DNA of 64,000 nt, taken from contig DJYK01000026.1 in assembly GCA_002450095.1 (NCBI GenBank), forward strand, positions 17,781 to 81,780. The letters run 5' to 3'. The notes beneath the pieces are model-generated. The model worked only from the letters and a program-made list of their open reading frames with translations. It made no database searches and was not told where the DNA came from. This DNA comes from Mageeibacillus sp. UBA6980. GTDB lineage: Bacteria > Bacillota > Clostridia > Saccharofermentanales > Saccharofermentanaceae. Positions 6,489 through 21,998 of this stretch are shown piece by piece (within the stretch, counting starts at the first letter, position 1; the number at the start of each line of letters is the position of its first letter). A program made the translations under genes and the position numbers.

Positions 6489-6533
6489 GTTTATTCTCCT
6501 TTACAAGTATTATTGAAGTTGGAATGATTCTGA

Positions 6534-6788
6534 TTACGGCATCGGTTTACGCTGCCCGTCTCCATGAAAGCCTCCGGAGGGCAGCGATTGGCGCTGCTCA
6601 CCTCCGTGGAAGCCTCCGGAGGGCAGCGATTCACGCTGCTCACCTCCGTGGAAGCCTCCGGAAGGCAGCGATTCGCGCTGCTCACCTCCGTGGAAGCCTC
6701 CGGAAGGCAGCGATTCACGCTGCTCACCTCCGTGGAATCCGAGAGAGGGAAGGTGTGTTCTTGTTGTAGTGTTCTGAATGTTTGTCAT
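6534..6788 (-). CDS. 84-aa tandem-repeat peptide (five 14-aa units LPSGGFHGGEQRES), first gene of the operon
   Basis: AAGGAG lies 9 nt upstream of the ATG at 6788, and the stop is 45 nt before the AAA+ gene. The repeat is open in all six frames, so coding status rests on the SD/ATG context and operon position. Confidence 0.55.
   Translation of the reverse strand: MTNIQNTTTRTHLPSLGFHGGEQRESLPSGGFHGGEQRESLPSGGFHGGEQRESLPSGGFHGGEQRQSLPSGGFHGDGQRKPMP
6538..6750. repeat. Head-to-tail 42-bp tandem repeat array (four near-perfect copies at 6567-6734 plus degenerate flanking copies)
   Basis: Copies at 6567-6608, 6609-6650, 6651-6692 and 6693-6734 differ by only a few bases each (unit gaagcctccggagggcagcgattcacgctgctcacctccgtg). 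Diverged partial copies lie on both sides. Confidence 0.95.
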
Positions 6789-6842
6789 AGTTGTTTTCTC
6801 CTTTATATAAGTTTTTTGTTGTGTGGCGAACCACGTTTATAC

Positions 6843-6998
6843 TCCTATGATATGTTGCTTTTTACTAAGCCCGGGGAGGGGGGTGATAATTTGAAGATCA
6901 ATCCTCTCCCTTGTTGTTATGCTCCTATGATATGATGCTTTTTCTATCATTCCCGTAGGGGGGTAATAAACTGAAAGTGGTAATTGATCCCCCCTCGC
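6843..6998. promoter_or_regulatory. Duplicated ~80-bp module in the divergent intergenic region (conserved 22-mer plus G-tract/C-tract hairpin)
   Basis: ctcctatgatatgTtgcttttt (6843-6864) and ctcctatgatatgAtgcttttt (6922-6943). Each is followed by a G-run (ggggagggggg / gtagggggg) and a complementary C-run (cctctccc / cccccctc). Confidence 0.5.
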
Positions 6999-7019
6999 AA
7001 TGCAATCTATATGAGCTCC

Positions 7020-7046
7020 TATAATTAACTAAAACCAATAAGGAGG
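7020..7046 (+). promoter_or_regulatory. Candidate -10 box and SD for the plus-strand operon
   Basis: TATAAT at 7020-7025 and AAGGAGG at 7040-7046, 6 nt before the ATG at 7053. No convincing -35 was seen. Confidence 0.35.
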
Positions 7047-7052
7047 TTCCAT

Positions 7053-7649
7053 ATGAGACTTGCAGATAACGGTTCATTAACTCTTGATAATAACTTACAG
7101 GAAGCCTTTATTGAGGACATAGACAGCTTTACATATATATGTCACGGACGTGTTCTTGAGGTTGATCATCATGAGTTGTTTTATTCAAAAAATCACAAGA
7201 TTGCGAACTCCATTTTCAGGGGGGAGCCCTATCAGTATGCTCATCAATCGATAGAATACAGAGTCAGACTCGGTAACCTCTCATATGGACGTTCGACAGA
7301 TTATAGAGATTACAATCTTTTTGGAAACTATCTTGGCATGATTAAGCCCGGAGATGAAGTAAAATTCAGAGTTCGTAAGGGACCTCGAGAGAAGGTTGTT
7401 GCAATTTATAACTGTACGACGGGAAGACAATTAAGACCGTCAATTCAGTTGTCTGCCGGTGTGGTCAGACTGTTTGCGGTTTTGGCCACGGCCTTGTTGG
7501 CCGGAGGCGTGTATGGTGTTTACTACCTGATAACGTCAGGCGTTCTTTGGCATATTTTTATGAAGATCCTTTATGGTCTTATCGGACTGGGCTTAGTCCT
7601 GTGGATCTATGATCTTTTGTTTTTCAGGTTCTTCAGAAAGAGAAAGTGA
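7053..7649 (+). CDS. Membrane protein (soluble N-domain plus C-terminal TM helices), function unknown
   Basis: 198 aa with a strong SD. Hydrophobic stretches VVRLFAVLATALLAGGVYGVYYLI and ILYGLIGLGLVLWIYDLLFF. Confidence 0.6.
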   Translation: MRLADNGSLTLDNNLQEAFIEDIDSFTYICHGRVLEVDHHELFYSKNHKIANSIFRGEPYQYAHQSIEYRVRLGNLSYGRSTDYRDYNLFGNYLGMIKPGDEVKFRVRKGPREKVVAIYNCTTGRQLRPSIQLSAGVVRLFAVLATALLAGGVYGVYYLITSGVLWHIFMKILYGLIGLGLVLWIYDLLFFRFFRKRK

Positions 7650-7652
7650 TCT

Positions 7653-10157
7653 GTGAGGTGGAATATGGACAAGAATACTACTGATTATTTATCTGCAAAG
7701 AGAATTGCTTCCGGGATAGTAAATGTGTCTCAAGGATATGGTCTTGAGACTGTTGCTCCCGGTGATGTTCTTGCTGACAGAATACTTATGCCTGATGTAA
7801 ACAGATGGTACAGGCTCAATCAGATACGAGCCTGTTCTAATAATGAGAATACTCATAATACTTATAAGAATGCAATCAAAAGCACTATGGCATCGGTGTT
7901 AAGACAAAATGAAGATATCGTTTGTTCATATGTGTTTGATGGTGGCGAAGTGTCAGTAATGTATGGAGCAAGAAATGCCGATGTTGGCATGATGCTTGAA
8001 AGTTCTTTGCCTGAATGCAGAATGGAGATGGCAAGTCTTGATATTAATGACAGAACATACAGCTATAACGGAATAATTACCGGTCGTATCAGAGGAGAAG
8101 AGCTGTCGGATAAATTGGTTGCAGCAGGCGTTAACGGCGGATCAGGCTTTGTTGCACTTGTAGCCCAGAGTGTCCCTTTACAACACTTGAATGAAAGAAT
8201 TGAAAATAATAACCGTTTGATTGGTTTCCTTAACCGTTACTCTGTGTCACGTAATACTTATGGTGAGATGAGTAGGTACGAGGAAGAATATGTTGAACAG
8301 GATATTGTTAATGCCGTTGAAATACTGAAGGAAGAGAACGATGTATTGCTTCGTAACAGAGAAGAAGGATTTACATACTCTATAATAAGATTTGGTGCAA
8401 ATGGCATTGATTTATTCAACAGGCTCAAAACAATGCTTTGTTCAGTTAATTCTGCCTCTGTGGACAGAAATACCGGTGTAAGCCATGAACCTGTCAGATG
8501 TATTGAGATCCCCCCGTTTATGCGAATCAGACCGCTGGCTGTACCATACATTAAGTCAGGCGATAATGTTTATATCCCTGATACTATGGTTGCAATTGAT
8601 GAATTGTCAGAAGCATTTATTCCTGCGAGACGGTCTGTATTCGGATATAACTACATTAACTATCATATAGATGAAAACTCTTATGAAGCTTTTCCTACAA
8701 TGCCGTTGTTTGCCGGTAAATCGTTTGAAGTCGGAAAGATAAGCGATTCAAACGGAAAGGCTTTAATTCCTGTAAGTATGATAAATCAGCATGTCTTTGT
8801 TACCGGAAGTACAGGTCAGGGTAAAACGACTACGGTAAAGAAGCTTTTAGCAGAGGCGTGGAAAGAACAGATTCCTTTTATTGTCTTTGAGAGTGCAAAG
8901 AAGGAGTACTTCTCCCTTATTAAAGCAATACCGTCTCTTCGTGTGCTGACATCAGGCCTTGACGGTAACGCTTTGGCAACGGATCCTTTCTGCCCGGAAA
9001 GGGGCATTACTATAGGTGAACATGCTGATGCTTTGGAAAGGGCGATAATGGCAGCTTGTGAAGGCGAACATCCTATCCCCGAAGCTTTGGCGGGTTTGCT
9101 TGAGTATTCATATCGTAAATCCGGATGGGAGTATGATGAGCCGGCTTATGAAGATTTACGAAGACCTTTTCCTACAGCCCGGGAAGTATATGAGAATATC
9201 GACGATTATATACGAGAGAATGCCGGGTATGGTCAGGAAGTGACGGCAAATATCAAAGGAGCTCTCGAGATGAGGATCAGGGTTCTGACCAGCGGATTGG
9301 CAACTCATGTGTTTACCTATAATAATGCAATGACTGCCAGGGAACTGCTATCTGTTCCGACCGTGATTGAGATGGAAGATTACCCCGAGAAACTAAGAGT
9401 GTTCTTGACCAATATCCTTTTGTTTAAGATCAAGTCTTATCTCAAAAAGGTTGCTGAGAGTGATTCATTGAAAAGAATCATAGTAATAGAAGAAGCGCAT
9501 AATATCTTCCGAAAGACAATACATGAAGAATCAACTCAGGCTGCAAATAACAGATATATAGAGAATATGCTCGCAACCGTACGTGCATCCGGTACAGGGA
9601 TAATTATAAGTGATCAGCGTCCGTCATTAATGTCTGACGCAGTTATAGCAAATACTTCCGTGAAAATACTGCATGCTCAAACATCGTCTGAAGATATCAA
9701 TATTGTTGGTCAGAGTATGGGGCTTACAGAGTTTCAGATAAGAAAAGTGAGAGAGCTTCGTAAAGGCGAATGTCTTATTGCATTGACCGGTGTCCACGGA
9801 GTTCAGAGAGCGAAGATTAATATGTTGGAAACAACAGCTGCAATCAATGCTGCGTGCCATATTTGTCATCATCGTTATGACTGTAAACAATCTATGGCTG
9901 CCAGAACAGTCGCATCTATGAATCGGGATTTGTTGAAATACCATGTATCCGGAATCCTCGGTGTGATATATGAACCTGATAGGCTTAAGTCCGGCCTCGA
10001 CAGATTATTCCATGATGTCGGATTATATTGCGGATTGACAGCCTCGTGTTGTGTTTTGGCAGAGATACTGAATGAGTATGCACCTGATCTTTCTTTCGAA
10101 GAGAAGAGGATAATCGTAACTTCATATTACAGGTTTTTATCCCCCCTCAAGAGATGA
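7653..10157 (+). CDS. HerA/FtsK-superfamily (DUF87-like) P-loop ATPase with a large N-terminal extension
   Basis: Walker A VTGSTGQGKTTT, Walker B RIIVIEEAHNIF, then IIISDQRPS. No TM segment. The start is ambiguous (GTG 7653 or ATG 7665). Confidence 0.7.
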   Translation: MRWNMDKNTTDYLSAKRIASGIVNVSQGYGLETVAPGDVLADRILMPDVNRWYRLNQIRACSNNENTHNTYKNAIKSTMASVLRQNEDIVCSYVFDGGEVSVMYGARNADVGMMLESSLPECRMEMASLDINDRTYSYNGIITGRIRGEELSDKLVAAGVNGGSGFVALVAQSVPLQHLNERIENNNRLIGFLNRYSVSRNTYGEMSRYEEEYVEQDIVNAVEILKEENDVLLRNREEGFTYSIIRFGANGIDLFNRLKTMLCSVNSASVDRNTGVSHEPVRCIEIPPFMRIRPLAVPYIKSGDNVYIPDTMVAIDELSEAFIPARRSVFGYNYINYHIDENSYEAFPTMPLFAGKSFEVGKISDSNGKALIPVSMINQHVFVTGSTGQGKTTTVKKLLAEAWKEQIPFIVFESAKKEYFSLIKAIPSLRVLTSGLDGNALATDPFCPERGITIGEHADALERAIMAACEGEHPIPEALAGLLEYSYRKSGWEYDEPAYEDLRRPFPTAREVYENIDDYIRENAGYGQEVTANIKGALEMRIRVLTSGLATHVFTYNNAMTARELLSVPTVIEMEDYPEKLRVFLTNILLFKIKSYLKKVAESDSLKRIIVIEEAHNIFRKTIHEESTQAANNRYIENMLATVRASGTGIIISDQRPSLMSDAVIANTSVKILHAQTSSEDINIVGQSMGLTEFQIRKVRELRKGECLIALTGVHGVQRAKINMLETTAAINAACHICHHRYDCKQSMAARTVASMNRDLLKYHVSGILGVIYEPDRLKSGLDRLFHDVGLYCGLTASCCVLAEILNEYAPDLSFEEKRIIVTSYYRFLSPLKR

Positions 10158-10197
10158 GTTTTATCTGATATATCATCAGAGTAAGGAGGAAGGATTT

Positions 10198-10422
10198 ATG
10201 GCAGAAGTATTAGGACCAATTGTTTGTGTTGTATATGCTTGTATAGCTGTTGGGTTGATAACCGGTACAGACGATTCGTTTAAGTGCAAAGTTATCGGAA
10301 TCTGTTTCGCTGTAGCTGCGATTCCTCTGGTGGTTTTTATGGACGTCGTGATTAAAGTTCTCGGCGTGTTAATTGTAATAGCAGCGATTTTAATATTTAT
10401 CTACTGCCTGTTAGGAGTGTGA
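10198..10422 (+). CDS. Small two-TM membrane protein
   Basis: 74 aa, almost entirely hydrophobic. SD AAGGAGGAAGG upstream. Confidence 0.6.
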   Translation: MAEVLGPIVCVVYACIAVGLITGTDDSFKCKVIGICFAVAAIPLVVFMDVVIKVLGVLIVIAAILIFIYCLLGV

Positions 10423-10928
10423 CTGTTATGGATAAGACTATCTATTCTGTTTTTCTTGTAGTTGTAATAGTCGGAGCTTGTGTAATTAAGCTTGTGTATC
10501 TTAATTGTAAGGAACGCAAGGCTCAGCAACAGCGAAATAGGAACAATAACAATAGCAGCAATATTAACAGTAACAGGAATAGTGTAAGCCGCCCGATAAT
10601 ACAGGAAAGTACACCTGTTGCCCGTGCAAATATTAGTAATAATTATGTTTATTATTTTGCAAACGGCAGAGGCCCTCTTGAAGACAGGACGTTTTGTTTC
10701 AGTTACGAGAAAGTTGGTGAATCCTGGCGTGCTTATATAGTAAAAATGCCTTCCTTGAGATCTCGTGATGCGTCATTCGCGTTGACCCACAGATTGAGAG
10801 CGGATGACGGCAGGACGTATGTCTGCTGGGACAGTCCGATACATAATCTGAAGGATATGCAGAATGTATCTAAGATGTGGGCTGACTGTATTTGTGAGTA
10901 CATCAAGACAGGAAAGAGATTCGGATGA
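10419..10928 (+). CDS. Single-pass membrane protein with an Asn-rich linker, function unknown
   Basis: N-terminal TM YSVFLVVVIVGACVIKLVYL, then QQQRNRNNNNSSNINSNRN, then a globular C-domain. Overlaps the upstream stop. The start could be ATG 10428. Confidence 0.5.
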   Translation: MTVMDKTIYSVFLVVVIVGACVIKLVYLNCKERKAQQQRNRNNNNSSNINSNRNSVSRPIIQESTPVARANISNNYVYYFANGRGPLEDRTFCFSYEKVGESWRAYIVKMPSLRSRDASFALTHRLRADDGRTYVCWDSPIHNLKDMQNVSKMWADCICEYIKTGKRFG

Positions 10929-10938
10929 GGGAAAAGAT

Positions 10939-11718
10939 ATGAAACTAATGAAAAACAAGTTAACGAATATGGGTGAAGCACAGGCGCACGCTGAAAGCTG
11001 CCATTGGAATTCACTTGGAAGAATTGCTGAGACTGAAGGCAGATTCATCTCTGATGCTGACAAGGAGCGGATAGCCGGCGGTGTAGATACACTTAAGGTT
11101 GTTGAGTACGATCCTTTCGGTGAACGAAGCGGTGGGTACAGATGCCTAGAGGGTAAAAGCGAGATGGAGATATCTGTTCTTAATAAAGAACAGGTTGAAC
11201 GCACTACAATGCATGAGACAAACCATTTCGTAAGTCATCACAGCGAGACTTCCGTCCCATCCGTGGAACGTAACGGTGTATATGAGTACCAGACGGTAGG
11301 ATTGCGCCACTCTTCTTGGTTCAGGTCTAATGAGACGGGCAAAGTTCAAGAGGTGAAGATAACGGGCCGTGGACTTAACGAAGGTGTTACTACGATGTAC
11401 ACGAACAGACAGTTGATGGAATTAGACCGTGCCAAAGGTTTGGAGGCTGCAAGAACCGGAATATATCAGCATGCTACTGAGTTGTCATCCCAGCTTGAGA
11501 TAATTGTCGGCAGCGATGTTCTTAAGGAGGCATATTACGGAGGCAAGGAAAACGAGTTGAAAGAGCGGGTTGATAGACTTGGAGGAGCTGGTACTTACGA
11601 GAGATTGCGGGAATGCATGGATGGAACCGTATCATCTAACTATTATGAGCGAATCAATTCGACTGCACGGGCTCAGAAGATAATGGAAGAACTGTATGAA
11701 GGAGCGAAGAGAAAATGA
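10939..11718 (+). CDS. Putative HExxH zinc metallopeptidase
   Basis: MHETNHF motif plus a downstream GLNEGVT (possible third ligand). ATG 10939 chosen from the longer 10864 ORF because the preceding gene ends at 10928. Confidence 0.45.
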   Translation: MKLMKNKLTNMGEAQAHAESCHWNSLGRIAETEGRFISDADKERIAGGVDTLKVVEYDPFGERSGGYRCLEGKSEMEISVLNKEQVERTTMHETNHFVSHHSETSVPSVERNGVYEYQTVGLRHSSWFRSNETGKVQEVKITGRGLNEGVTTMYTNRQLMELDRAKGLEAARTGIYQHATELSSQLEIIVGSDVLKEAYYGGKENELKERVDRLGGAGTYERLRECMDGTVSSNYYERINSTARAQKIMEELYEGAKRK

Positions 11719-12056
11719 AAGATTATGTTATGAACTATTTGTTCTCAAACGGCGTAAGTATTAACTCGGTTAAGGAAGAGCAGGAGATCGAAGAAGGTAT
11801 ATCGCTCTTTCTTACAGAGTGCGGCTTGGCTCGAAGTAAGGATTCAGAGTATGCCAGAGGATATGTAAGACAGATCTTGTCGATAATAGACCCCCGTGAT
11901 ATAAAACAAATATTTTTGAAGTATAATGTAATAAGTAGAACGAGACAGCTCGCAGCCGAAGGCCGTACCTATGCGGATCCTGAGATGATGAAGTGTCTTA
12001 CTGAACTGAATGAGTGCGGGTTATACGGAAAGTATGTGCCCAATGTAGAAGAGTAA
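11715..12056 (+). CDS. Small hypothetical protein, translationally coupled to the peptidase gene
   Basis: ATGA start/stop overlap at 11715-11718. 113 aa with no recognisable motif. Confidence 0.5.
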   Translation: MKDYVMNYLFSNGVSINSVKEEQEIEEGISLFLTECGLARSKDSEYARGYVRQILSIIDPRDIKQIFLKYNVISRTRQLAAEGRTYADPEMMKCLTELNECGLYGKYVPNVEE

Positions 12057-12073
12057 TATCAGGAGGAATGATT

Positions 12074-13774
12074 ATGGCAGTTAGAACTATTACAAGAAGA
12101 ATGAATGCAGCTGAAGAAGCATTTGTTTCCGAACTTACAAAGATACATTCGAGACATAACTTTGAGAATCTTCTCACAAAAATACTGGTTGAATCCAGAG
12201 AATCAAATACTGAAGTATGGAATGAGTTGGTTGGTAAACTTTTTGATATGTTAAGAGATTGTGATATCGAGTTTAGTGAGGATGTTTTTTCAGACCCTGC
12301 GAATTACGATGCTGACAAAGAATATATAGAATCTTTGCTTGATAATGTCGAACTTGAAAATAGTGATGATGTTTTAAGATGTCTTATGGGAAAGGTACAG
12401 AATGTAATTGAAGCTGCGCCTTTACCTGAAGCATATTTGGAAAGGATTGTTGACCATGCATTAAATGGTGAATTGAATGGTGATTCCTTACGCCTCAAGA
12501 TCCTCAAGAGATTTATTAAGTATGGACGAGATGCTTTGTTTGATTCTGATAGTATTTCTGCAGAAAAACCGGGAGCCGGTTACGGCGGTAAAGGGTATAT
12601 ATATAAATGCGCACAAAAAAATGCTGGGGCAGATATTAGTATAGAGAAAGAAGACTACGATAGAATTGCTGATTATATCGATGAAAGTGTATTCAATGTT
12701 TTAAATGATGACGAGATAAATCGTGATAATTTCAGACCTGGCCGAACGTATGGAATTATTAAGGTGGTTAACGATCTTGCAAATGGACTTTTCAGGTCTA
12801 ATGAATCAACAAAGAAAGACTTATATATATTTGCCATAATTTTTGATATGTCATTCTATTATGAGGATCCTTTGCGTGCTCAGATACGTGATGAGTATTT
12901 AGATGTCGAGACGGGTTTGTTTGATAACTATTATCAGAATAATATTAAACGATTCATTAATGAAAAATATTATGATAAAGATAATGATTGTCTTGGTTCT
13001 GCATACGAGATAATACCTTCCGGAAGTGGAATTAACTATAATAACTTTGTTGAGTTGACGTACATATACTATTTATCTAATACTTTGGCGGAGGAAATGA
13101 CTCCGGAGGAAAAGATCAGAAGATCAGCGGCAATGATTCAAAGAATCAGAAATGCAGATAGAAATACTCATGAAGTATTAAATACGGCTCAGAGTAAGAG
13201 TTTTTTTGTTGATGATATTTTGAAAAAAAGTATAACTGAAGATAGTTATTTTGATTTTGTTGTAAAGAATATTGATATTGGTGAAAAAGACGATAACTGT
13301 GGACCGATGCAATATGGAGTTGGATCAGATACAGCATTTAGAGAATATAAATCCATAATCAATCAATATGATCAGCTTAAGGCTGAAGTGAAAGATCAGC
13401 TTAATCAGATGAAAATTGATGATAAGTATTGTGAAATAATTGATCATCAGGGTCATTATCTTGACTATTTCCCGGAAGATAGAACTCCTGCGTTTGATTG
13501 TGTTATTAAGATTTTGGATCGTATGTTGAAGGAAGATTATGTGCAATCAAAAGAGAAACTAACCAGAACACATATGATAGCTGCTTATTATGAGTACTTT
13601 ATATTGAAGTATTCTGACGATAAGTCTACGTTGTATGATTTCAAAGATGTGTATGATTGGTTTAAGAACGGGATTAATTATCACTTGAGAATTTCAGGAT
13701 ATACGGAGATAAACGCCAAGAGTTTGTTGGATATTCTCATTATAGCTTCTGCATATTCGTATTTGGCATTGTGA
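12074..13774 (+). CDS. Hypothetical protein (566 aa)
   Basis: AGGAGG at 12061-12066, 7 nt before ATG 12074. No motif recognised. Confidence 0.55.
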   Translation: MAVRTITRRMNAAEEAFVSELTKIHSRHNFENLLTKILVESRESNTEVWNELVGKLFDMLRDCDIEFSEDVFSDPANYDADKEYIESLLDNVELENSDDVLRCLMGKVQNVIEAAPLPEAYLERIVDHALNGELNGDSLRLKILKRFIKYGRDALFDSDSISAEKPGAGYGGKGYIYKCAQKNAGADISIEKEDYDRIADYIDESVFNVLNDDEINRDNFRPGRTYGIIKVVNDLANGLFRSNESTKKDLYIFAIIFDMSFYYEDPLRAQIRDEYLDVETGLFDNYYQNNIKRFINEKYYDKDNDCLGSAYEIIPSGSGINYNNFVELTYIYYLSNTLAEEMTPEEKIRRSAAMIQRIRNADRNTHEVLNTAQSKSFFVDDILKKSITEDSYFDFVVKNIDIGEKDDNCGPMQYGVGSDTAFREYKSIINQYDQLKAEVKDQLNQMKIDDKYCEIIDHQGHYLDYFPEDRTPAFDCVIKILDRMLKEDYVQSKEKLTRTHMIAAYYEYFILKYSDDKSTLYDFKDVYDWFKNGINYHLRISGYTEINAKSLLDILIIASAYSYLAL

Positions 13775-13792
13775 TAATAGGAGATTTGATTA

Positions 13793-14470
13793 ATGGGATT
13801 AAGTGAACCCGGTTTTTACCATGTACAAGAGTGTGTACCTAATCAGGATTGTATTCTTGCTGGTACCGTGAATAATTATCGAGTAGCAGTATTGGCTGAT
13901 GGAGTTTCTACTTGTCGTTGTTCAGGACAAGGTGCTTTTTTAGCCTGTTCTAAAACAAGAAGTTTTTTACTGAATAATGCAGAAGATGTTTTCGAATATG
14001 ATAAAGAATCAATTGCTGAATACATAGTTGATTCTGTTTATCGCTCTTTGTGTGAAGTATCAAATGTAAATGGCGATGCTCCCGCTGACTATTCCAGTAC
14101 ACTATCTGCAGTCTTATATGATCGCAGATCTCACCGATTAGTATGCTTTCATTTGGGAGATGGGTTGATTCTTTTGGCAAATAGGAAAGGATGCAGAGCT
14201 TTATGCATCCCGGGCAGCCGCATTAACGGAACAGCAGTTACAACAACAATTGGTGCTCATAAGGTATCAGTTGTTGTTAAAGAAGATATCTCATTTGATA
14301 AACACGTGTTATTGTGTTCAGATGGGGCATGGGAGAATATGTATAGAAAGGGATTCTTAAAGAATGAACCATTAAAATACATAACTAAAGGCAGGTTTAA
14401 TGCTTTGGATAATTATATTAGAAATACACATCCTAATGACGACTACAGTTATATTGCGATGAAACTATAG
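13793..14470 (+). CDS. PP2C-family Ser/Thr protein phosphatase
   Basis: VLADGVS, HLGDGLILL and LLCSDGAWE blocks, matching the metal-binding Asp motifs of bacterial PP2C/SpoIIE-like phosphatases. Confidence 0.7.
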   Translation: MGLSEPGFYHVQECVPNQDCILAGTVNNYRVAVLADGVSTCRCSGQGAFLACSKTRSFLLNNAEDVFEYDKESIAEYIVDSVYRSLCEVSNVNGDAPADYSSTLSAVLYDRRSHRLVCFHLGDGLILLANRKGCRALCIPGSRINGTAVTTTIGAHKVSVVVKEDISFDKHVLLCSDGAWENMYRKGFLKNEPLKYITKGRFNALDNYIRNTHPNDDYSYIAMKL

Positions 14471-14485
14471 AATAGGAGACTTTTT

Positions 14486-17400
14486 ATGGAACGGAATCAT
14501 AGATTGGTAAATGATGATGAGATTGAATTGTCGGAAGTAAGTACAGGTGCAACTGTTACCTTTAAGATAAATGATGTGCTTTCGGGTTCAGACGGATCAT
14601 CTGTAATATGTTATAGTGCCAGACGTCTTGATACCGGAAGGTCCATTATTCTTAAGGAGTTCTATCCCTTAGTTTATTCGTTTAATGATGACGGAAAGAG
14701 TTTTTCTCTTGTTAGAAATGATAATAACCAATTAATACCGTCATCAAATATCACAGAAGCCAAAGAAAAGTTCTTAGATCTTAGAAATACTAAATTCAAT
14801 ACTTCTAAAAAGATAATTGAAACAATAAACTCGAGTCAAGGTGAGAATATTCTAAAGACGTTTATTCCAAGTATTTCATTGTATCGAGGAACTGTTGATA
14901 ATGATGGTAATTGGAATAGCACTTTTTATTATGTTGTTGATCAGCCTCAATTGATTACTTTCGAAAGTGTTTGTGAAGATATCAAAAAGAATCCGCAGAA
15001 GGATTCAGAGTATAAATTGTTGGTTATATTAAAGTCGATTCAACAGTTAACTATCTGTATAAAGACTCTTCATGAAGAAGGTTTTTGTCATAGAGATATT
15101 TGTCCAAGCAATTTTGGATTTGCAAAGCGCAGTGAAGACTATCTTACTGAAACAATATCATTGTTTGATATTGATTGTTTTATGTATTTTAAAGATAAGA
15201 AAACGAATGAATTTGTGGGAACCCCAGGCTTTATGGCACCGGAGGTTGAGTCAAAAACTGTTCAGAGGTCTGTATCTGCAGATTTGTATTCGATAGGAGC
15301 AACTCTTTACTATGCTCTTACAGGAGAACACGCACAAGCAATAGAAGATCATAATAATAATCAGATAAGAGAAGAAATAGAACAATCGAAACTTGTAAAA
15401 GCTTCTACGGTTAATAATAATCCATATTTACTGGGGAAAATATGCGAGTTGCTTTATAAGTCATTGAATAGGGATGTAGATAATCGATATAAGAATTCGG
15501 ATGAGCTACTTAAAGACATTAGAATGGCTTTATTCTTTATGTTGCCTCCTGATAGAAGAGATATTGATGTTGACGGACTGGTATGGGAACTTACCAGAAC
15601 TGATTATACAACTGAACAGAAACAATACTATAAATTTTTGATGCTGTATCAGTTGTTTAAAGTACCTTTATACAATCCTGATCGCAGTGACGATAACAAT
15701 ACTATCGATGTTACACTTGTTGGATTTGACAGATATGGTTATGATTTCCTTGATGCTGTGCTTCAATTCAGTCAATGTATTAAGGAGACTGTCAATACAA
15801 GAGTTTATGTAAACGTCGATAGGTTTGAATCAGTTGATTTATATTTGGGTAATCGACCGGCTTTGAAGGACTTCTTTAGAATAAATAAGTTCGGAACACC
15901 ATTGAACCCTGTAAAAGAGTTTAATGACACGGATACATATTCATACGGTACAGTTGAGTTCATTAATTTTACAGGAAATGTAGATCCAAATCATATTGTT
16001 CGAAATGAGGATAATCGTAATTATATATTTGTTACTTTGGGAAATGACAAGAAGAATTACGAATATGCAACCCAATTAAGTGATGTAGTTTTGAATGTAG
16101 ATAAATGTATAACCTATATTGCAACGATGAACGAAGCAGTGGAAGATTATGCAGATTGTGTTGTGCCGATATTTGTTAATAAATTCGATATGAATGACGA
16201 AAAATCGGAGTTCTATCTGATTGAGGAGCGTTCAAAGATTCGTAACTTCCTGCATGACAGAGGAATATATGTAGATATTGAAAAAAAGATGAAGGATTAT
16301 CATAAAGATAACGAATATAAGCATAATGCATGTGTATCTGGAGTGTTATCACTGAAATATATGTTGCATCGTATAGGTGTTTCTCGTGATATGATTCATG
16401 ATCCAGAAGGGACTTCGGTAGAATTTGAGCGCGTTCACGATAATAACAGAAATGAACTCATATATATTGAACATAAACGCTGGGTAGTTGATAAATTATG
16501 TGATGGTTGGAGTCCTCTTCCTATAGATGAATTTGATGTGTATACATCTAGCGGTGAGAATAAAGATACAACTAACAAGCGACATTCTTGTATCGTCAGA
16601 AGCAGCATAAATAACAACGTCAATATACTGAAGGATCAGTATGGAGACGGCATTAATGTCAATGTGGATAAATGGGACGGAACAGAAGTAATACCTGAAA
16701 TGGATGAGCTTGACAGAGTATCTTTAACTTTGCATAGGTCATTTAAAAGGGCTGCCAATAATCCCAATAGAATAAATGATATCAAAAGAAATCTCTCTTT
16801 TATTGGTCAGGAAGTTTCCTGCGATCCTGAAAAATACAAACCATTTTCTGATTGGCAGCATTATATACTGAATCTTTTGGAAGGGAAAAACCCGGTTGAT
16901 AGATATGGTTCATTAAGGGACGCTTTCTTCTCGGCTATTGAGAAAGATGACGATGAGGTAAAGAAAAAGGCTAAAACAGTTGATGATGACGTTAAATGTA
17001 TAGTTCAATATAACAAGTTCCTTAACTATAAATATGAAGATGAGAAGATCTTTGATAATCTTCCCTTTATATTGAATTATTCATTAGAAACAGTATTAGT
17101 TAGAGATTTATACTTTGGTCCCAATAAAGAGAAACTGTTAAATAATTATGCATCAATTATGATCGCTAATCCTGCTGCTGTCGTTTATTGTGTTAATCTA
17201 ACCGCTACTAATGCTAACGTTGATGCAATATGTAATGTTATAGACTCAATCAATAACACTTTCAAAAAGCACTTTATACGGACCCAAATGAAGTTTTTGT
17301 TGTTCTATAATAATAATGACATAATTAGACATAAAAAAGAGAACTTAATAACTGCGTTAAATTCAAATAATCGGCAGTTCACAGTTATAGGTTCGGTCTT

Positions 17401-18601
17401 GATTCATAATAGTTACAATGAATCTCGTGAAAGTGCATTAAAAGTTTTAAATGGGAATAATAATTATTTAGTTGAAGATGAAGACTATTCGTTTAATTAT
17501 AAAACTCGTCATTTTGACAAGTCACCCCGCCTTAAGTACATAACTAAGCATTTACCAAGTCTTGCAGTAGCAGATGTTTTGAATATTACAAATATTGAAT
17601 ATGCATATGATGTTCCGACGTATTATGAAAGCTTTAAAACTCTATGGTCATTCTATGCTGATAACAATCAAAGGTCTAACTGGAATGCATTTTGTTCTCC
17701 TTTTAATATAGATAGAGACTCTCATGTAAAACAGTTACTAAATATGAAAGTTAAGGAAAAACATAAGGATGAAGGGAATTATGATAGCTGTTCTTTTACC
17801 ATTCCATCAGTATGTCAGGAGGGCGTTTTCAAGATTATGGAGTTTCTCCATAATAATAGAATAATTAAGTGGTCTCATAATTTTACACATCAATCGATAA
17901 ATGATTTAAAGTTGGATTATAAAGTGTTAAGCACCTGCAATGAAAAATTGAAGAATCTCCTAAGTGAACCACAATTCTTAATTAATGATAAAGCTTTATA
18001 TACTCTTAAACAGAGTAGCCATTATTACGTAAAGTATAAGAATTTGCGCGTGAATCTAAACGAATATGAAGAAGTTGCTGATAAGAATTATCCTAGGGAG
18101 ATTATCGAAGAAATACTAAAAGAAGCTAAAATAATTGATTTTATTAATGATGAAGGTTTCACATGTACCAGTTTCGAGGCTTATGATCTTATTTCTGCAG
18201 AAGGTAGGTTGCTTGAAATTCTTGTTTACTATGCATTAAAGACTAGTGGTATGTTTGATGATGTCGCAACAAGTATTAGTGTTAATTGGGATGATTACAG
18301 TCGTAATGAGCTTGATTTAATCGTAACCAAAGGTTTTAGGTGTGCAGTTATAGAATGTAAGGCTAGGAGTATGATTGGTAATAGTGAGTATAGGCAATTA
18401 GTTGGTGAGAATATTGATCATCCGGGCCCTGGCTTTAGGTTATCTGTCCCAACTGAAAGAATTTTGGTCGCTATGTGCAATCCTGATAATGATACAGCCG
18501 ATTCAGAATTAAAGAATAAAGTAAAAACCATATATTGGTTAAGTGATAAACCAAAGGAATTTGCTCAAAGAATTATAGATGCATTAGGCTGGAATGATTG
18601 A
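14486..18601 (+). CDS. Giant Ser/Thr protein kinase fused to a C-terminal Card1/DUF1887-like PD-(D/E)xK nuclease domain
   Basis: Kinase motifs: IILKE (VAIK Lys), HRDICPSNFGF (HRD..N), LFDIDCF (DFG position), GTPGFMAPE (APE). C-terminus: NELDLIVTKGFRCAVIECKAR (D..ExK). The middle has a weak Rossmann-like VTLVGFDRYG and a RyR-like IEHKRWVVDKLCDGW segment. Confidence 0.75.
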   Translation: MERNHRLVNDDEIELSEVSTGATVTFKINDVLSGSDGSSVICYSARRLDTGRSIILKEFYPLVYSFNDDGKSFSLVRNDNNQLIPSSNITEAKEKFLDLRNTKFNTSKKIIETINSSQGENILKTFIPSISLYRGTVDNDGNWNSTFYYVVDQPQLITFESVCEDIKKNPQKDSEYKLLVILKSIQQLTICIKTLHEEGFCHRDICPSNFGFAKRSEDYLTETISLFDIDCFMYFKDKKTNEFVGTPGFMAPEVESKTVQRSVSADLYSIGATLYYALTGEHAQAIEDHNNNQIREEIEQSKLVKASTVNNNPYLLGKICELLYKSLNRDVDNRYKNSDELLKDIRMALFFMLPPDRRDIDVDGLVWELTRTDYTTEQKQYYKFLMLYQLFKVPLYNPDRSDDNNTIDVTLVGFDRYGYDFLDAVLQFSQCIKETVNTRVYVNVDRFESVDLYLGNRPALKDFFRINKFGTPLNPVKEFNDTDTYSYGTVEFINFTGNVDPNHIVRNEDNRNYIFVTLGNDKKNYEYATQLSDVVLNVDKCITYIATMNEAVEDYADCVVPIFVNKFDMNDEKSEFYLIEERSKIRNFLHDRGIYVDIEKKMKDYHKDNEYKHNACVSGVLSLKYMLHRIGVSRDMIHDPEGTSVEFERVHDNNRNELIYIEHKRWVVDKLCDGWSPLPIDEFDVYTSSGENKDTTNKRHSCIVRSSINNNVNILKDQYGDGINVNVDKWDGTEVIPEMDELDRVSLTLHRSFKRAANNPNRINDIKRNLSFIGQEVSCDPEKYKPFSDWQHYILNLLEGKNPVDRYGSLRDAFFSAIEKDDDEVKKKAKTVDDDVKCIVQYNKFLNYKYEDEKIFDNLPFILNYSLETVLVRDLYFGPNKEKLLNNYASIMIANPAAVVYCVNLTATNANVDAICNVIDSINNTFKKHFIRTQMKFLLFYNNNDIIRHKKENLITALNSNNRQFTVIGSVLIHNSYNESRESALKVLNGNNNYLVEDEDYSFNYKTRHFDKSPRLKYITKHLPSLAVADVLNITNIEYAYDVPTYYESFKTLWSFYADNNQRSNWNAFCSPFNIDRDSHVKQLLNMKVKEKHKDEGNYDSCSFTIPSVCQEGVFKIMEFLHNNRIIKWSHNFTHQSINDLKLDYKVLSTCNEKLKNLLSEPQFLINDKALYTLKQSSHYYVKYKNLRVNLNEYEEVADKNYPREIIEEILKEAKIIDFINDEGFTCTSFEAYDLISAEGRLLEILVYYALKTSGMFDDVATSISVNWDDYSRNELDLIVTKGFRCAVIECKARSMIGNSEYRQLVGENIDHPGPGFRLSVPTERILVAMCNPDNDTADSELKNKVKTIYWLSDKPKEFAQRIIDALGWND

Positions 18602-18673
18602 TCATTAGAGTTATAGTACTTCAGATAAGTATTAAATACCGCTGATCTGAACGAACCTGAATAGCTTTCTTGG

Positions 18674-21523
18674 ATGAGAGATAATAACATGACTGAACCG
18701 ACATTCTTACATAAAACTAAAGATGGATCTTCCCTTCAGAATAAGCCTAAGGTCTTCTTTACATGCCATCCTGATGATTTTGAGAAGTGTTTTAAGCAGA
18801 TATGCCAAGATATATTTGAGTTTCAAGATTGTGTTGTTTTCTATACTGAGGATATGACTCAAGATCTTAGTGATAAGAATACTTGTGTTGACTTGGAAAG
18901 AATGAATCTGTTTGTTATACCGGTCACAATAAAAACTTTGATAACACCTAACAGAGCTATGGATTCGGATTTCCATTTTGCGTTGGAAAGACATATCCCT
19001 GTTCTACCTATTATGATTGAACCTGGTATTTATGATGTTTATTCAAGACCGGATAAATTTGGAGACCTACAATATCTAAAGACTTATAGTAAATCAGATA
19101 CGGAAGTGGATTATAAAAACAAACTTAAGAATTATCTTGAATCTGTGTTAATAAGTGATGAATTAGCGAATCGTGTGCGTCAAGCTTTTGACGCGTATAT
19201 ATTTCTGAGCTACAGAAAGAAGGATAGACAGTATGCTAACAGTCTAATTAAGATGATTCATAATAATCCCCAATGTGAGAATATTGCGATATGGTTTGAT
19301 GAGTTCCTAATTCCCGGAGAGAGCTTTAGGGAGGGTATAGATCGAATATTAAATGACAGTAAACTCTTTACTTTGCTGGTAACACCGAATTTGCTTGAGC
19401 GAAATGGCGAAGAACCTAATTTTATAATGAGGGAGGAGTACCCTAAGGCTAAGGAAATGGGAAAACCTATTCTCCCAACTGAGATGCAAGCAACAGATCG
19501 AGATGCATTAGCAGCGGAGTTTCCAGGATTACCTGAATGTGTAGATTATGTAGATCAAGAATCTTTTAATAAGAGGTTGCTTGATGTGCTGACAAGAACG
19601 GCTATTGCAGAAAACCCTAATAACACTCCGGAACACGATTATCTCATTGGATTAGCGTATTTAGAGGGTATTGATATGGAAGTTGATGCTGATCGAGCTG
19701 TTAGACTAATTACAAAAGCTGCAGAAGCAGATTTGCCTGAAGCCATCGAAAAGCTGATTGATATGTATAGGAATGGTATAGGGGTACAAAGAAATTATAA
19801 AAAAGCACAGAAGTGGGTAAAAAGATGGTTATATCATTTGACAAGGTGGATTGAAGAGGCAGATGAGCCTTTGGATAACTGCATTAGACGTTTGCTTGAT
19901 GTTGCATATTTCTTTCTGGATATTGGTGATTATGATGATTATATAGATGGTATGTATGGTGCATATACTTTTGGTGTTAATCGCTTGGGACGCGATAATC
20001 AGTTTACACTTCGTGCAATGTCCGAACTGGCTTTAGGATATTTTTATACAGAAAAATATGAAAAAGCGCTTGAATTATCTATAAAGTGTTATGATGCGAG
20101 TTGCAGGCATCAGGGAAAAGAATCTCATGATAGTATTCGGTATCAAACGATTCTTGCTCGAGTATACCAATCTATGAATGATACTGATCGTAGCATTTCT
20201 TTGTACGAAGAGTGTTTTGAGCTTAGCAGTTCTGTATTAGGTGAGAATGATGAAGTTACTTTAACAATAATGGCGAGTCTAGCTATTGCATATTGTGATA
20301 AAAATGAGTTTGATAAGAGCATAGAATTGTTGAAGGATTGTTATCAGCGTTGTTGTAATACATTTGGAGAGACATCAGATAAGAGTATTGATGTGCTTGC
20401 AAAAATGGCTCGTTCATACTATAGATATGACTTTTATGATAAGGGGATAGGTTTATATCAAAAATGTTATGAATACTATTGTGACAAATATGGAAAGGAT
20501 CATCCTAAGTCAATAGGCACTCTTCAGTACATTGCAGATGGATATTTTGATAACGGTGGTTATCAAAATGCAATCAATTTGTATGATTCAGTTATTAGTT
20601 TTAATCGTGTATTATTTGGAGATGATAGTCCGTTTATCATTTCGCCGCTGCTTGGACTTGCTAAATCATATAAAGAGATTTTGGAATATGAAAAATCGAT
20701 GTCTATATATGAACAATTGTATGTAGTGTATTTTAATAACTCCAAGTATGATGAGTGCGTCAATATACTAATGAATGAATGTTATCCGCTTAGTTGTAAG
20801 GTTTATGGGGATAAGCATGAGAATAGTATTAGTTTATTAGATTGTGGAAGACTTGTTGCTTTGTATTGTGATGCGTGTAAAGAGGAGGACAAAGTTCGCG
20901 GTGAGTATAATAATTACGATTTAATGAAACAAGTGTATACTAATCAGTTCGATTATTATAAAAGGTGTTATCAACTAATAAAAAAGCATAAGAATTATAG
21001 GCCTGAGATTTATAACAAGATTCTCGATGCTATTTCTAGTTTCAATGTTCCAGGCTCATTACGACGAGATCCTTCTGCAATCTATTTATTAGAAGAATGC
21101 TATAAATATAAGTGTGAAGAGTTCGGAAGATTGAATCCCGGCAGTATTGGTTCTTTGGAGGCTCTTTCAAACTTTTATTACTTTAATCACGATTATGAGA
21201 AAGCGATTGAACTTAAATCCCAATGTTATGCTGATTATGTTAGCGTTTTTGGAAAAGCTGATTTTAATACTTTGGATTGTCTAGAGGCTCTTGCTGAAAT
21301 GTATTCTTCTATTGGTGAGAAACAGAAATTGATAGAGTGTTATAATGAATTGTTTTCGATCGTTGATGAATTAGATATAGATACTGATCTTTACAGGTGG
21401 ATAAAGGATCAACTAAAAGATTATCATTATCGTATGAGTTGTATGCGGTATGGTGAAAACCATCCAATTAGTGAAATGATTATGAATAAGATAACCGAAT
21501 TGAATCAGAAGGAAAGTGGTTAA
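18674..21523 (+). CDS. Tandem TIR-like domains fused to Sel1 and TPR repeats
   Basis: KVFFTCHPDD.. (TIR/flavodoxin-like) and YIFLSYRKKDRQYA..WFDEF..LVTPN (TIR). Sel1-like LAYLEGIDMEVDADRAVRLITKAAEADLPEA..YRNGIGVQRNYKKAQKW. Then many TPR_12-like repeats. The start is ambiguous (ATG 18674 or 18689). Confidence 0.75.
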   Translation: MRDNNMTEPTFLHKTKDGSSLQNKPKVFFTCHPDDFEKCFKQICQDIFEFQDCVVFYTEDMTQDLSDKNTCVDLERMNLFVIPVTIKTLITPNRAMDSDFHFALERHIPVLPIMIEPGIYDVYSRPDKFGDLQYLKTYSKSDTEVDYKNKLKNYLESVLISDELANRVRQAFDAYIFLSYRKKDRQYANSLIKMIHNNPQCENIAIWFDEFLIPGESFREGIDRILNDSKLFTLLVTPNLLERNGEEPNFIMREEYPKAKEMGKPILPTEMQATDRDALAAEFPGLPECVDYVDQESFNKRLLDVLTRTAIAENPNNTPEHDYLIGLAYLEGIDMEVDADRAVRLITKAAEADLPEAIEKLIDMYRNGIGVQRNYKKAQKWVKRWLYHLTRWIEEADEPLDNCIRRLLDVAYFFLDIGDYDDYIDGMYGAYTFGVNRLGRDNQFTLRAMSELALGYFYTEKYEKALELSIKCYDASCRHQGKESHDSIRYQTILARVYQSMNDTDRSISLYEECFELSSSVLGENDEVTLTIMASLAIAYCDKNEFDKSIELLKDCYQRCCNTFGETSDKSIDVLAKMARSYYRYDFYDKGIGLYQKCYEYYCDKYGKDHPKSIGTLQYIADGYFDNGGYQNAINLYDSVISFNRVLFGDDSPFIISPLLGLAKSYKEILEYEKSMSIYEQLYVVYFNNSKYDECVNILMNECYPLSCKVYGDKHENSISLLDCGRLVALYCDACKEEDKVRGEYNNYDLMKQVYTNQFDYYKRCYQLIKKHKNYRPEIYNKILDAISSFNVPGSLRRDPSAIYLLEECYKYKCEEFGRLNPGSIGSLEALSNFYYFNHDYEKAIELKSQCYADYVSVFGKADFNTLDCLEALAEMYSSIGEKQKLIECYNELFSIVDELDIDTDLYRWIKDQLKDYHYRMSCMRYGENHPISEMIMNKITELNQKESG

Positions 21524-21710
21524 TCAATACATTTACTTATAGAACTTATGATGACTATGTTGATATTGAAGAAGAATTGTTGGATATCAAAGTTATACAG
21601 TGGGACCATACAGATTATAGATATGAATATACTAGATGCTTATGAGGAGAAAGTAGACAATTATATTAAGGATAACCCTTAAACGATAATAAGTAGTAAG
21701 ATATAGCATT

Positions 21711-21739
21711 GGCGCTCCTCGAGGGCGCCTTTTTGTTTT
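21711..21739 (+). terminator. Intrinsic terminator after the 11-gene operon
   Basis: ggcgctcctcgagggcgcc hairpin followed by tttttgtttt. Confidence 0.7.
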
Positions 21740-21809
21740 ACCCCCCCTCAGGACCTCACTAATCTGGCAAATACAATGTAGATAAAGAAAACACAAACGG
21801 AGGTCCAAT

Positions 21810-21998
21810 ATGAATACAAAGAATATTATCACAGTAGTCATTATTACTCTCTGTGTAGCTGCACTTTTCTTCGCAGGATGCTTAGTTACCTCTCACGAAG
21901 ATAAGCAATATGTATCAGCGCCTAGAGCACAGGTAAGTGCGTATGAACTGCCTACACCGGTGCCCACACCAACTCCTGTTCCAGGATTCGGGGGGTAA
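21810..21998 (+). CDS. Small lipoprotein
   Basis: GGAGG SD. Signal peptide with lipobox LFFAGC. Pro/Thr-rich tail. Confidence 0.6.
   Translation: MNTKNIITVVIITLCVAALFFAGCLVTSHEDKQYVSAPRAQVSAYELPTPVPTPTPVPGFGG

Follow-up and report, generated by a model that had tools for sequence, protein, structure and literature searches.

The ten plus-strand genes at positions 7053-21523 of a stretch of Mageeibacillus sp. UBA6980 DNA (contig DJYK01000026.1; the whole analysed stretch of 64,000 nucleotides is called the window) had originally been predicted to form a single operon for anti-phage defence. Comparison of gene content and order in related loci shows that the array consists of two separable, recurring and so far unnamed gene systems placed end to end. 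System A (3287-12056) includes genes 1-6 of the array, among them a HerA-like ATPase, and four minus-strand genes upstream of them. System B (12074-21523) includes genes 7-10, encoding a kinase-nuclease and a TIR protein among others. There is slightly better than an even chance that the array is such a composite and that both systems are directed against phages or other mobile elements. The genes are as follows.

3287-3595, minus strand: protein X, 102 aa, homologous to the N-terminal domain of the AAA+ ATPase
3599-5209, minus strand: JAB (JAMM) peptidase fused to an E1-like (ThiF) adenylating domain, 536 aa (Pfam ThiF 72.8 bits, Prok-JAB 30 bits)
5196-6488, minus strand: AAA+ ATPase, 430 aa (Pfam AAA_2 92 bits)
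6534-6788, minus strand: tandem-repeat peptide gene, 84 aa, five LPSGGFHGGEQRES-like units, four of them exact
7053-7649, plus strand: gene 1, membrane-anchored protein, 198 aa (transmembrane segments 130-194; family alignment)
7653-10157, plus strand: gene 2, HerA-clade P-loop ATPase, 830-834 aa (Pfam DUF87, HerA_C; family profile against structures)
10198-10422, plus strand: gene 3, polytopic membrane protein, 74 aa, hydrophobic throughout
10419-10928, plus strand: gene 4, 166 aa, N-terminal transmembrane helix, low-complexity linker and conserved cytoplasmic domain of about 95 aa (family alignments)
10939-11718, plus strand: gene 5, predicted zincin-type metallopeptidase, 259 aa from the ATG at 10939, conserved H-E-T-x-H
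11715-12056, plus strand: gene 6, 113-aa protein, translationally coupled to gene 5 via an ATGA overlap
12074-13774, plus strand: gene 7, 566-aa protein, apparently mostly helical, constant upstream partner of the kinase
13793-14470, plus strand: gene 8, PP2C-type Ser/Thr phosphatase, 225 aa (Pfam PP2C_2 68.4 bits)
14486-18601, plus strand: gene 9, multidomain protein, 1371 aa (Pfam Pkinase 63 bits, Card1_endonuc 32.7 bits)
18674-21523, plus strand: gene 10, protein with TIR-like, TIR, Sel1 and TPR domains, 944-949 aa (Pfam TIR_2, Sel1, TPR_12 at 117.7 bits)

Two separable gene systems

About 45 loci, drawn from genomes as well as metagenomes, were compared with HerA as the seed (loci are numbered with the prefix L); at 90% HerA identity they stand for 23 lineages. 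The family of HerA-like ATPases is small, with 32 clusters at E<1e-79, 28 of them near full length (about 825 aa, 34-39% identity). Its hosts are Lachnospiraceae, Oscillospiraceae, Faecalibacterium, Blautia and other gut Clostridia. The order of genes is nearly fixed and co-directional. It starts with ClpP, a soluble ATPase resembling type IV coupling proteins (T4CP), the tandem-repeat peptide, a membrane protein of about 77 aa, the Clp-type AAA+ ATPase, the JAB-E1 fusion and the protein X of about 100 aa. These are followed by one to three copies of gene 4, sometimes a SprT-like gene, gene 1, the HerA gene, genes 5 and 6, and often a gene for a WG-repeat protein. In the window, the half with the AAA+, JAB-E1, X and repeat-peptide genes is inverted at 3287-6788, giving two divergent operons, and genes 3 and 4 follow the HerA gene, whereas in the relatives they precede it. 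Since the order fixed in 23 lineages includes the inverted upstream genes, genes 1-6 are one half of the larger System A. The boundaries 7053-21523 had thus been drawn too narrowly, leaving out the four minus-strand genes with which genes 1-6 belong.

The kinase-seeded set consists of six loci, L046-L051, chosen from the gene 9 family, which has about 30 clusters of proteins of 1300-1580 aa. A gene 7 homologue precedes the kinase in all six loci, PP2C is encoded in four, and in five loci the kinase is followed by one to five TIR proteins fused to TPR, Sel1, WD40, FtsK-like or tubulin-like domains or to a second kinase. None of the six contains HerA, JAB-E1 or genes 1, 4, 5 or 6 within 10 kb. 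Hence genes 7-10 form a second unit, able to stand alone. Conversely, the kinase gene is missing from most of the 23 HerA lineages. The GC content at third codon positions (GC3) is 0.25-0.28 in genes 7-10 as against 0.36-0.48 in System A genes, the short repeat-peptide gene (0.58) being outside the range of the others. The difference supports a separate history of genes 7-10.

At the same time, the two systems recur together. Members of the kinase family are found no more than 10 kb from HerA in the window, L011, L013, L023 and L040, although the L011 member has no kinase domain, and the systems co-occur in four or five lineages. In L013, a single co-directional array contains System B, the ClpP and T4CP-like genes and the HerA block but lacks the AAA+/JAB-E1/X block. 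TIR proteins are encoded at most 10 kb from HerA in 7 of the 23 lineages; among them, in L007 and L044, are TIR-Sel1-TPR members of the gene 10 family. Loci with only one of the two systems share accessory genes, namely ClpP, T4CP-like, SprT-like (47-49% identity), small RyR (65%) and WG-repeat genes. As both families are rare, chance co-location of the systems is unlikely. The simplest reading is that Systems A and B are interchangeable modules often working side by side: they probably cooperate, and neither requires the other for maintenance. Thus independent assortment, which had been named in advance as evidence against a single defence cluster, is seen in part: either half occurs without the other, yet the two recur together. 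The original prediction had allowed for one large multi-effector system or for several systems stacked behind one promoter; the comparative data favour stacking, of two systems, whereas the single promoter is not upheld (see below).

All fourteen genes (3287-21523) could instead be one obligate integrated super-system. Genes 1-10 do form one co-directional array with short gaps and one terminator, the kinase module adjoins the HerA block in two different orders (in the window and in L013) and its relatives lie near HerA in L011, L023 and L040, and accessory genes are common to both types of loci. However, each half occurs independently, as the six kinase-seeded loci and the majority of HerA lineages demonstrate, and the two halves differ sharply in GC3. 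An obligate super-system is therefore disfavoured and is regarded as unlikely.

Organization of the array

Ten open reading frames on the plus strand fill the region 7053-21523, and ten products, of 198, 830, 74, 166, 259, 113, 566, 225, 1371 and 944 aa, were called in an independent assembly of the locus. The count of eleven genes in the original prediction was wrong, its own list having ten entries. The array itself is real and co-directional, with gaps of -4 to 72 nt as counted from starts backed by ribosome-binding sites and by the gene calls of the independent assembly. Most of the ten genes are preceded by AGGAGG-type ribosome-binding sites. Alternative starts exist for gene 5 (10864 or 10939) and gene 7 (12014 or 12074); the start giving the 259-aa product of gene 5 agrees with the independent gene calls. 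The expected ATGA overlap of genes 5 and 6 at 11715 follows from the coordinates of the reading frames. The array ends with the following element.

21711-21739, plus strand: intrinsic terminator-like hairpin with a 7-bp stem (6 G-C pairs), followed by the T-run TTTTTGTTTT

The hairpin (21711-21729) is GGCGCTC-CTCGA-GGGCGCC, with the T-run directly 3' of it. It is the top-ranked terminator-like site within 3000-22500, in agreement with the terminator predicted there. On the other hand, the claim of one promoter-like region could not be confirmed, as 63 promoter-like matches were found as compared to 71 +/- 8 in shuffled sequence. Since this is no enrichment, a single promoter for the array cannot be asserted.

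The domains DUF87/HerA_C, PP2C_2, Pkinase, Card1_endonuc and TIR_2/Sel1/TPR_12 were found again with Pfam, and genes 1, 3 and 4 indeed encode transmembrane segments. Thus the list of encoded parts made earlier stands in its domains, membrane segments and HExxH motif; its description of the kinase as active-looking is in doubt. Six of the ten products have no family match in Pfam, NCBIfam, PADLOC or PHROG. Pfam searches at E<=1 with sub-regions of genes 1, 2, 5, 6, 7, 9 and 10 gave nothing useful, and in PHROGs no phage family matched genes 1, 4, 5, 6, 7 or protein X.

System A

The tandem-repeat peptide gene opens the inverted half. The repeat is visible at the DNA level at 6538-6737 (period 42 nt, 4.8 copies). 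Repeats of the form (L/M)PxGxF(R/H)GGEQ, in 2-14 copies, precede the AAA+ gene in L001, L007, L008, L009, L011, L014 and L015. The AAA+ ATPase consists of an X-like N-terminal domain and a single module of the ClpA/B/C D2 type. Its PDB matches are ClpB, ClpC and ClpA D2 (E ~1e-31), and its matches in PADLOC are DolB and PDC-M37B (E ~2e-21). The pore-loop motif GAPPSYVGY and the Walker A/B motifs are conserved; no ClpP-docking loop was recognised in the sequence. Protein X clusters with the N-termini of the AAA+ ATPases and is encoded directly after JAB-E1 in about 30 loci; it has no match in Pfam, PADLOC or PHROG.

The JAB-E1 protein has 44-55% identity to the product of the gene between AAA+ and X in the relatives. 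Preserved in the family alignment are the JAB (JAMM) pattern E...HSHP...S..D, the nucleotide-loop motif GxGGAR and two CxxC pairs. Among PDB sequences, MccB and the SUMO E1 are nearest (E ~3e-7), with MccB on top at E 3.4e-7.

Gene 1 encodes a soluble beta-rich N-terminal domain followed by two C-terminal transmembrane helices, and its homologues are directly upstream of the HerA gene in all loci compared. The window copy lacks the N-terminal zinc ribbon CxxC...CPFC that is kept in all 13 homologues compared (e.g. L001 9213-9950). Its start has a strong ribosome-binding site and lies immediately past the inversion junction. No inverted repeats that would account for the inverted AAA+/E1 half turned up when they were searched for. 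Between the two halves of System A, a divergent intergenic region of 264 nt contains a 27-nt direct repeat, TTATnCTCCTATGATATGwTGCTTTTT, at 6837-6863 and 6917-6943 (93% identity, 80 nt apart). This pair could be an operator pair or another regulatory element.

Gene 2 belongs, judging by its profile, to the HerA clade of the FtsK-HerA superfamily. Both Pfam domains score above their cut-offs (DUF87, 35 against 23.2 bits; HerA_C, 30.6 against 22 bits). The profile of the family matches antiphage and archaeal HerA structures in PDB (8yho, 4d2i, 9c1m, 8wiv, 8xau; E 3e-17 to 5e-7), the best match being 8yho at E 3e-17. Invariant in the family are GxxGxGKT, EEAHN, DQRP and four cysteines. The N-terminal region of about 350 aa has no database match, and the C-terminal region is Cys-rich.

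Gene 3 resembles the ~77-aa membrane protein preceding the AAA+ gene in the relatives by size and hydrophobic pattern only, with no significant BLAST link to that family.

The conserved domain of gene 4 is found in 437 cluster representatives at E<=1e-3 and contains a nearly invariant histidine and cysteine in the pattern THR...G..YVCWD. It has no Pfam family, and its family profile had no match among PDB sequences. Its AlphaFold model is confident (predicted local distance difference test, pLDDT, 93.2), and Foldseek found no relative for it, the best E-values being 0.63 in PDB and 0.25 among viral structures. A 366-aa protein with three copies of the domain is encoded beside ThiF, AAA_2 and T4CP genes in L053, and this neighbourhood links the domain to the E1 module. 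The order in L053 (1263-8773), a more distant arrangement, is T4CP-like ATPase, 393-aa protein, 75-aa protein, the 366-aa protein, ThiF protein (564 aa) and AAA_2 protein (527 aa); the contig ends before the point where a HerA gene would be visible. The module of E1, AAA+ and gene 4 may be wider than the HerA family. Judging by the charge distribution (KRKAQ past the helix of gene 4, a poly-Arg tail at the end of gene 1), both proteins have their conserved domains in the cytoplasm.

The HExxH motif noticed in gene 5 is indeed conserved. It has the form H-E-T-x-H across the family (in the window HETNH, in two loci HETVH), and the 13 homologues also share the downstream motif GxNEGxTT(M/L)(Y/F)TN. 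Gene 5 has no Pfam or NCBIfam match, and its family profile found nothing among PDB sequences. Gene 6, for which there is no Pfam family match, always follows gene 5 in the relatives.

These components may also be read as a pathway for a ribosomally synthesised and post-translationally modified peptide (RiPP) or bacteriocin, in which the repeat gene would encode a multi-core precursor, the E1 would be an MccB-like modifier, JAB, the zincin and ClpP would process the peptide, the membrane proteins and the ATPase would export it, and the TIR and kinase genes would be mere neighbours. Such a pathway would agree with the position of the repeat-peptide gene directly upstream of the enzymes, with MccB as the top PDB sequence match of the E1 domain, with the presence of several peptidases and three membrane proteins, and with the radical-SAM/SPASM, AMP-binding and acetyltransferase genes adjoining some loci. 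However, the SUMO and UBA5 E1 enzymes score as well as MccB, the core contains neither an ATP-binding cassette (ABC) or major facilitator superfamily exporter nor a leader-peptide recognition element, and the conserved domains of genes 1 and 4 are on the cytoplasmic side. To our knowledge, HerA-clade ATPases are not peptide exporters. Moreover, the recurrent linkage with TIR, nuclease and restriction genes would be left unexplained. We consider a RiPP pathway decidedly improbable.

That genes 1-6 are part of a conjugative or type IV-like secretion apparatus (with a VirB4-like ATPase, membrane parts, a wall-acting peptidase and a coupling protein), an alternative already raised with the original prediction, is highly improbable: there are weak matches to TraG P-loop, TrwB, VirB4 and CedD models, T4SS-DNA_transf/TraG-D_C proteins are encoded beside System A in many relatives and serine recombinases occur near L013, but the VirB4 and CedD scores are far below the curated cut-offs (82 against 600 bits, 31 against 590; VirB4 models, 23-31 bits against 590-643), the gene 2 profile matches HerA structures and no VirB4 in PDB, the T4CP-like proteins of the relatives have no N-terminal membrane anchor or transmembrane helices and the window has no T4CP gene, the neighbourhoods compared showed neither a relaxase nor a VirB6/VirB8-like gene, no conjugation or phage hallmarks were found, and there is no full-length relative among 72,556 plasmids or 50,697 phage records.

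System B

Homologues of gene 7 (23-55% identity) are directly upstream of the PP2C or kinase gene in L013 and L046-L051. PP2C is encoded beside the kinase in L013, L046, L047, L048 and L051 and is absent in L049 and L050; in P0047, outside the six kinase-seeded loci, it is fused to the kinase.

Gene 9 encodes, in this order, a Ser/Thr kinase, a Rossmann domain (GxGxxG), a helical RyR-like region and a Can2/Card1-like CARF domain with a PD-(D/E)xK nuclease. Card1_endonuc scores above the Pfam cut-off (32.7 against 26.4 bits). Residues 340-1371 were modelled by AlphaFold from an alignment of 27 sequences (pLDDT 79.9, predicted template modelling score 0.75). In Foldseek, the model matched 1xmx (VC1899) at E 3.3e-8, Cdn1/cA4 at 4.8e-8 and Can2/cA4 at 1.3e-7; the matches 1xmx, 9u49, 7bdv and 8q3z have probability 1.0, E 3.3e-8 to 1e-5 and 530-580 aligned columns. 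Since the matches span so many columns, the C-terminal ~500 residues are, according to the model, a complete unit of CARF and PD-(D/E)xK domains, more than a nuclease. The Rossmann domain contains a GFGxYGQ motif and is weakly similar to TrkA/RCK and dehydrogenase domains. The signature EHRRWxxEKxxxGW of the helical region is one that we take to be RyR-like. Two relatives of gene 9 carry the Pfam domain RyR, and L011, L023, L034 and L050 encode small RyR proteins alongside the kinase.

The kinase and PD-(D/E)xK domains of gene 9 are thus as had been predicted; the description of the kinase as active-looking is less secure. The domain keeps LKE, HRD, N, a DFG-like D and APE, but its catalytic-loop lysine is replaced (see below); in the closest relative, P0039, the same position is occupied by asparagine. 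The kinase domain may therefore have altered or lost phosphotransfer activity.

Gene 10 has two TIR domains, as had been suggested. Its N-terminal domain aligns to the TIR detected by Pfam with hhalign probability 94.9% and E 4.5e-8. Glutamate is found at the expected catalytic position only in the second TIR, the first one being divergent. Homologues of gene 10 are present in L007, L044 (two copies) and L049.

Comparison with known systems

HerA ATPases, TIR domains, kinase/PP2C switches and Card1-type nucleases each occur in known anti-phage systems. However, the combination corresponds to no named system, as had been supposed: PADLOC gave only single-domain matches, and NCBIfam scores were far below the curated cut-offs. 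No system model in PADLOC v2, NCBIfam release 20 or Pfam fits System A or B, and literature searches on combinations of these domains found neither architecture described. System A is more distant than System B from known kinds of immune systems.

System B resembles Thoeris in having one or several TIR genes, with different paralogues in a single locus, beside an effector with a Rossmann-type nucleotide-sensing domain. The likeness is weak in models, as PADLOC ThsB matches gene 10 only at E 1e-4. Further, the effector combines kinase, Rossmann, RyR-like, CARF and PD-(D/E)xK domains in place of the SIR2/Macro-SLOG of ThsA, the TIR domains are fused to TPR, Sel1, WD40, NACHT and other modules, and PP2C and the 566-aa protein are additional. 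Neither ThsA nor a SIR2, Macro or SLOG domain turned up among the scanned genes of the window, so that the locus is not assigned to Thoeris.

Card1, Can2 and Cdn1 are nucleases of type III CRISPR systems in which CARF and PD-(D/E)xK domains are combined and for which cyclic oligoadenylates serve as activators. Gene 9 is like them in the predicted fold of its C-terminus, in its Card1_endonuc match and in the order of CARF followed by nuclease. The difference is that its nuclease is fused behind a protein kinase and two further domains.

The TerY-P triad, also mentioned in the original prediction, is similar in the adjacent PP2C and Ser/Thr kinase with a third constant partner upstream. This label does not apply, as no vWA/TerY protein is present (gene 7 has no vWA/TerY or other Pfam match at E<=1 and no PDB sequence match), the kinase carries a nuclease and TIR genes follow.

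System A shares a HerA-clade core with SIR2-HerA, DUF4297-HerA and archaeal HerA-NurA (PADLOC HerA models, E ~1e-11), and antiphage HerA proteins are its best structure matches. It differs in the novel 350-aa N-terminus and Cys-rich C-terminus of the ATPase and in its partners, which are membrane proteins, a zincin-like protein and the JAB-E1/Clp module; no SIR2, DUF4297 or NurA domain was found in the genes of 528-21523 or in conserved neighbours. The E1 and JAB with intact motifs, and weak PADLOC matches to E1-E2 and JAB models, are reminiscent of Cap2/Cap3 of type II cyclic-oligonucleotide-based anti-phage signalling systems (CBASS) and of Bil. Unlike in those systems, JAB and E1 of System A are fused, and a GG repeat peptide and a Clp-type AAA+ are present instead. 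The small disordered GG(E/Q) peptide, the AAA+ unfoldase and the ClpP of relatives recall the Pup-proteasome, Clp systems and DolB of Dodola. However, System A has an E1-type enzyme instead of a PafA/Dop ligase, and the comparison with Pup is an analogy only. Partial PADLOC matches to mad8 (E 1e-15) and mad6 (E 1e-13) point to MADS, but NCBIfam MAD6 scores 40 bits against a cut-off of 460, and no methyltransferase was detected, the set mad1-8 being expected.

Possible mechanisms

For System B, the presence of several TIR proteins with varied sensor modules beside one nucleotide-sensing effector, which is the logic of Thoeris and CARF systems, suggests the following. The repeat-bearing TIR proteins (with TPR, Sel1, WD40 or NACHT, depending on the locus) would sense infection, and their TIR domains would either make a nucleotide signal from NAD+ or deplete it. 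In gene 9, the CARF or Rossmann part would read the signal and switch on the PD-(D/E)xK nuclease. The kinase and PP2C would gate the response, setting and resetting its threshold by phosphorylation. We know of no earlier description of such a pairing of TIR sensors with a CARF effector.

For System A, the three membrane proteins (genes 1, 3 and 4) may hold the HerA hexamer at the membrane. JAB-E1 would cut the repeat peptide after Gly-Gly and adenylate it as a small tag, and the Clp-type unfoldase would handle tagged proteins, together with ClpP where the loci carry it. The repeat peptide with its internal Gly-Gly is the best candidate substrate of JAB-E1, if the processing of polyubiquitin and the action of Cap2 on a disordered C-terminus are taken as analogies. 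This tag-and-unfold mechanism is the weakest part of the account. In a fuller version, peptides of about 14 residues with GG would replace a folded ubiquitin-like protein, the E1 would attach them to targets, and the AAA+ (with ClpP) and the membrane-held HerA motor would dispose of tagged proteins of the invader or the host. This version, taken together with the TIR-to-CARF route in System B, seems rather improbable.

Several observations weigh against reading the array as two immune systems acting in these ways. Both look like anti-phage immunity judging only from domain content and gene neighbourhood. The sample is about 50 related loci with 10-kb flanks, many from fragmented metagenome contigs. 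For System B, neither among the annotated genes of the window nor in the six kinase loci was a Cas10, cyclase or CD-NTase found that could supply a classical CARF ligand, and TIR products are not known to bind CARF domains. The catalytic loop of the gene 9 kinase (residues ~203-211) reads HRDICPSNF where the family consensus is HRDIKPxNF, with lysine replaced by cysteine. No function could be assigned to gene 7, which has no Pfam match and whose family profile found nothing among PDB sequences. For System A, the window contains no ClpP or T4CP-like gene, and no E2 domain, CD-NTase or ubiquitin-like protein was found in the system, the E1-E2 models of PADLOC covering the E1 part only. Two candidates for the missing roles were rejected: protein X as a ubiquitin-like substrate, since it has no conserved C-terminal Gly or Gly-Gly and no family match, and gene 4 as a membrane-anchored E2 (THR..G..YVCWD compared with HPN..G.ICLD), since Foldseek finds no E2/UBC fold.

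Genomic context

The array is adjoined on the left by one more candidate defence gene.

528-3191, plus strand: TIR-NACHT protein (signal transduction ATPase with numerous domains, STAND), 887 aa (Pfam TIR_2 67 bits, NPHP3_N 88 bits, HTH_TANC1)

The protein has a winged-helix domain and only weak TIR and bSEFIR matches in PADLOC. The GC3 of its gene is 0.33, like that of genes 7-10, and it is mirrored in L045 by a TIR-NB-ARC-HD protein flanking the HerA locus. It may be an independent defence gene resembling nucleotide-binding leucine-rich-repeat receptors, or a further TIR sensor of System B. The AT-rich composition and the neighbouring TIR-NACHT gene had been taken to indicate a defence island. 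Both are confirmed: the gene adjoins the array, and a low-GC island (1-24000, GC 0.37) abuts an iron-siderophore ABC transporter at GC 0.49. Neighbours of the related loci include HsdR, ResIII helicases, WYL and PLD-ResIII-DUF3427 proteins and, near L013, serine recombinases; a type III CRISPR RAMP protein was found near one HerA locus only, L041. Such surroundings agree with defence islands located on mobile DNA or close to it.

A module of acetyltransferase (Acetyltransf_3), AMP-binding and radical-SAM/SPASM genes is present in L004 (10388-14439), L039, L045 (7179-9034) and L049 (1-3410). It adjoins System A loci and one System B locus, sometimes with adenosine deaminase or methyltransferase, and may be a shared accessory module or a separate RiPP cluster.

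A plasmid of Lactococcus cremoris, pB26B (L052; NZ_CP032437.1, 33553-50812), encodes a 1076-aa HerA-like 'ATP-binding protein' with 28.6% identity over the ATPase domain only. Its operon contains, besides this gene, two dynamin-family genes, two hypothetical genes, an HNH endonuclease and a WYL gene, with an abortive infection (Abi) gene nearby. With its dynamins, WYL and HNH proteins and identity confined to the ATPase domain, it was rejected as a System A locus and is a different candidate defence system.

The region 21800-23800, which lies between the terminator and the staphylococcal-nuclease gene, contains several small open reading frames of 62-135 aa, one of them with a weak HTH_11 match in precomputed annotation, as well as short tandem repeats, all perfect, at 22663-22691 and 23491-23527. 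At the right edge of the low-GC island are the staphylococcal-nuclease homologue (24015-24545), genes for tRNA-Cys and tRNA-Gly (31358-31432 / 33624-33699) and an IS110-family transposase (36731-37906). Further downstream, 47226-63054 is a non-ribosomal peptide synthetase cluster with three AMP-binding/peptidyl carrier protein modules, of which two have condensation domains and one has a thioesterase; the gene for a 1248-aa FtsX-type permease comes next.

Biological significance

If Systems A and B are immune systems, two multi-gene architectures are added from gut Clostridia, in which few defence systems have been tested. In that case, System B would join TIR sensors to a CARF-nuclease effector under the control of a kinase and a phosphatase, and would link NAD-derived signalling to a class of effectors known from type III CRISPR. 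The conserved domain of gene 4 has a confidently predicted fold without a structural relative. In System A, a HerA motor would be combined with an E1/JAB enzyme, a Clp unfoldase and a repeat peptide, a combination that would bear on the origin of ubiquitin-like and proteasome-like logic in bacteria.

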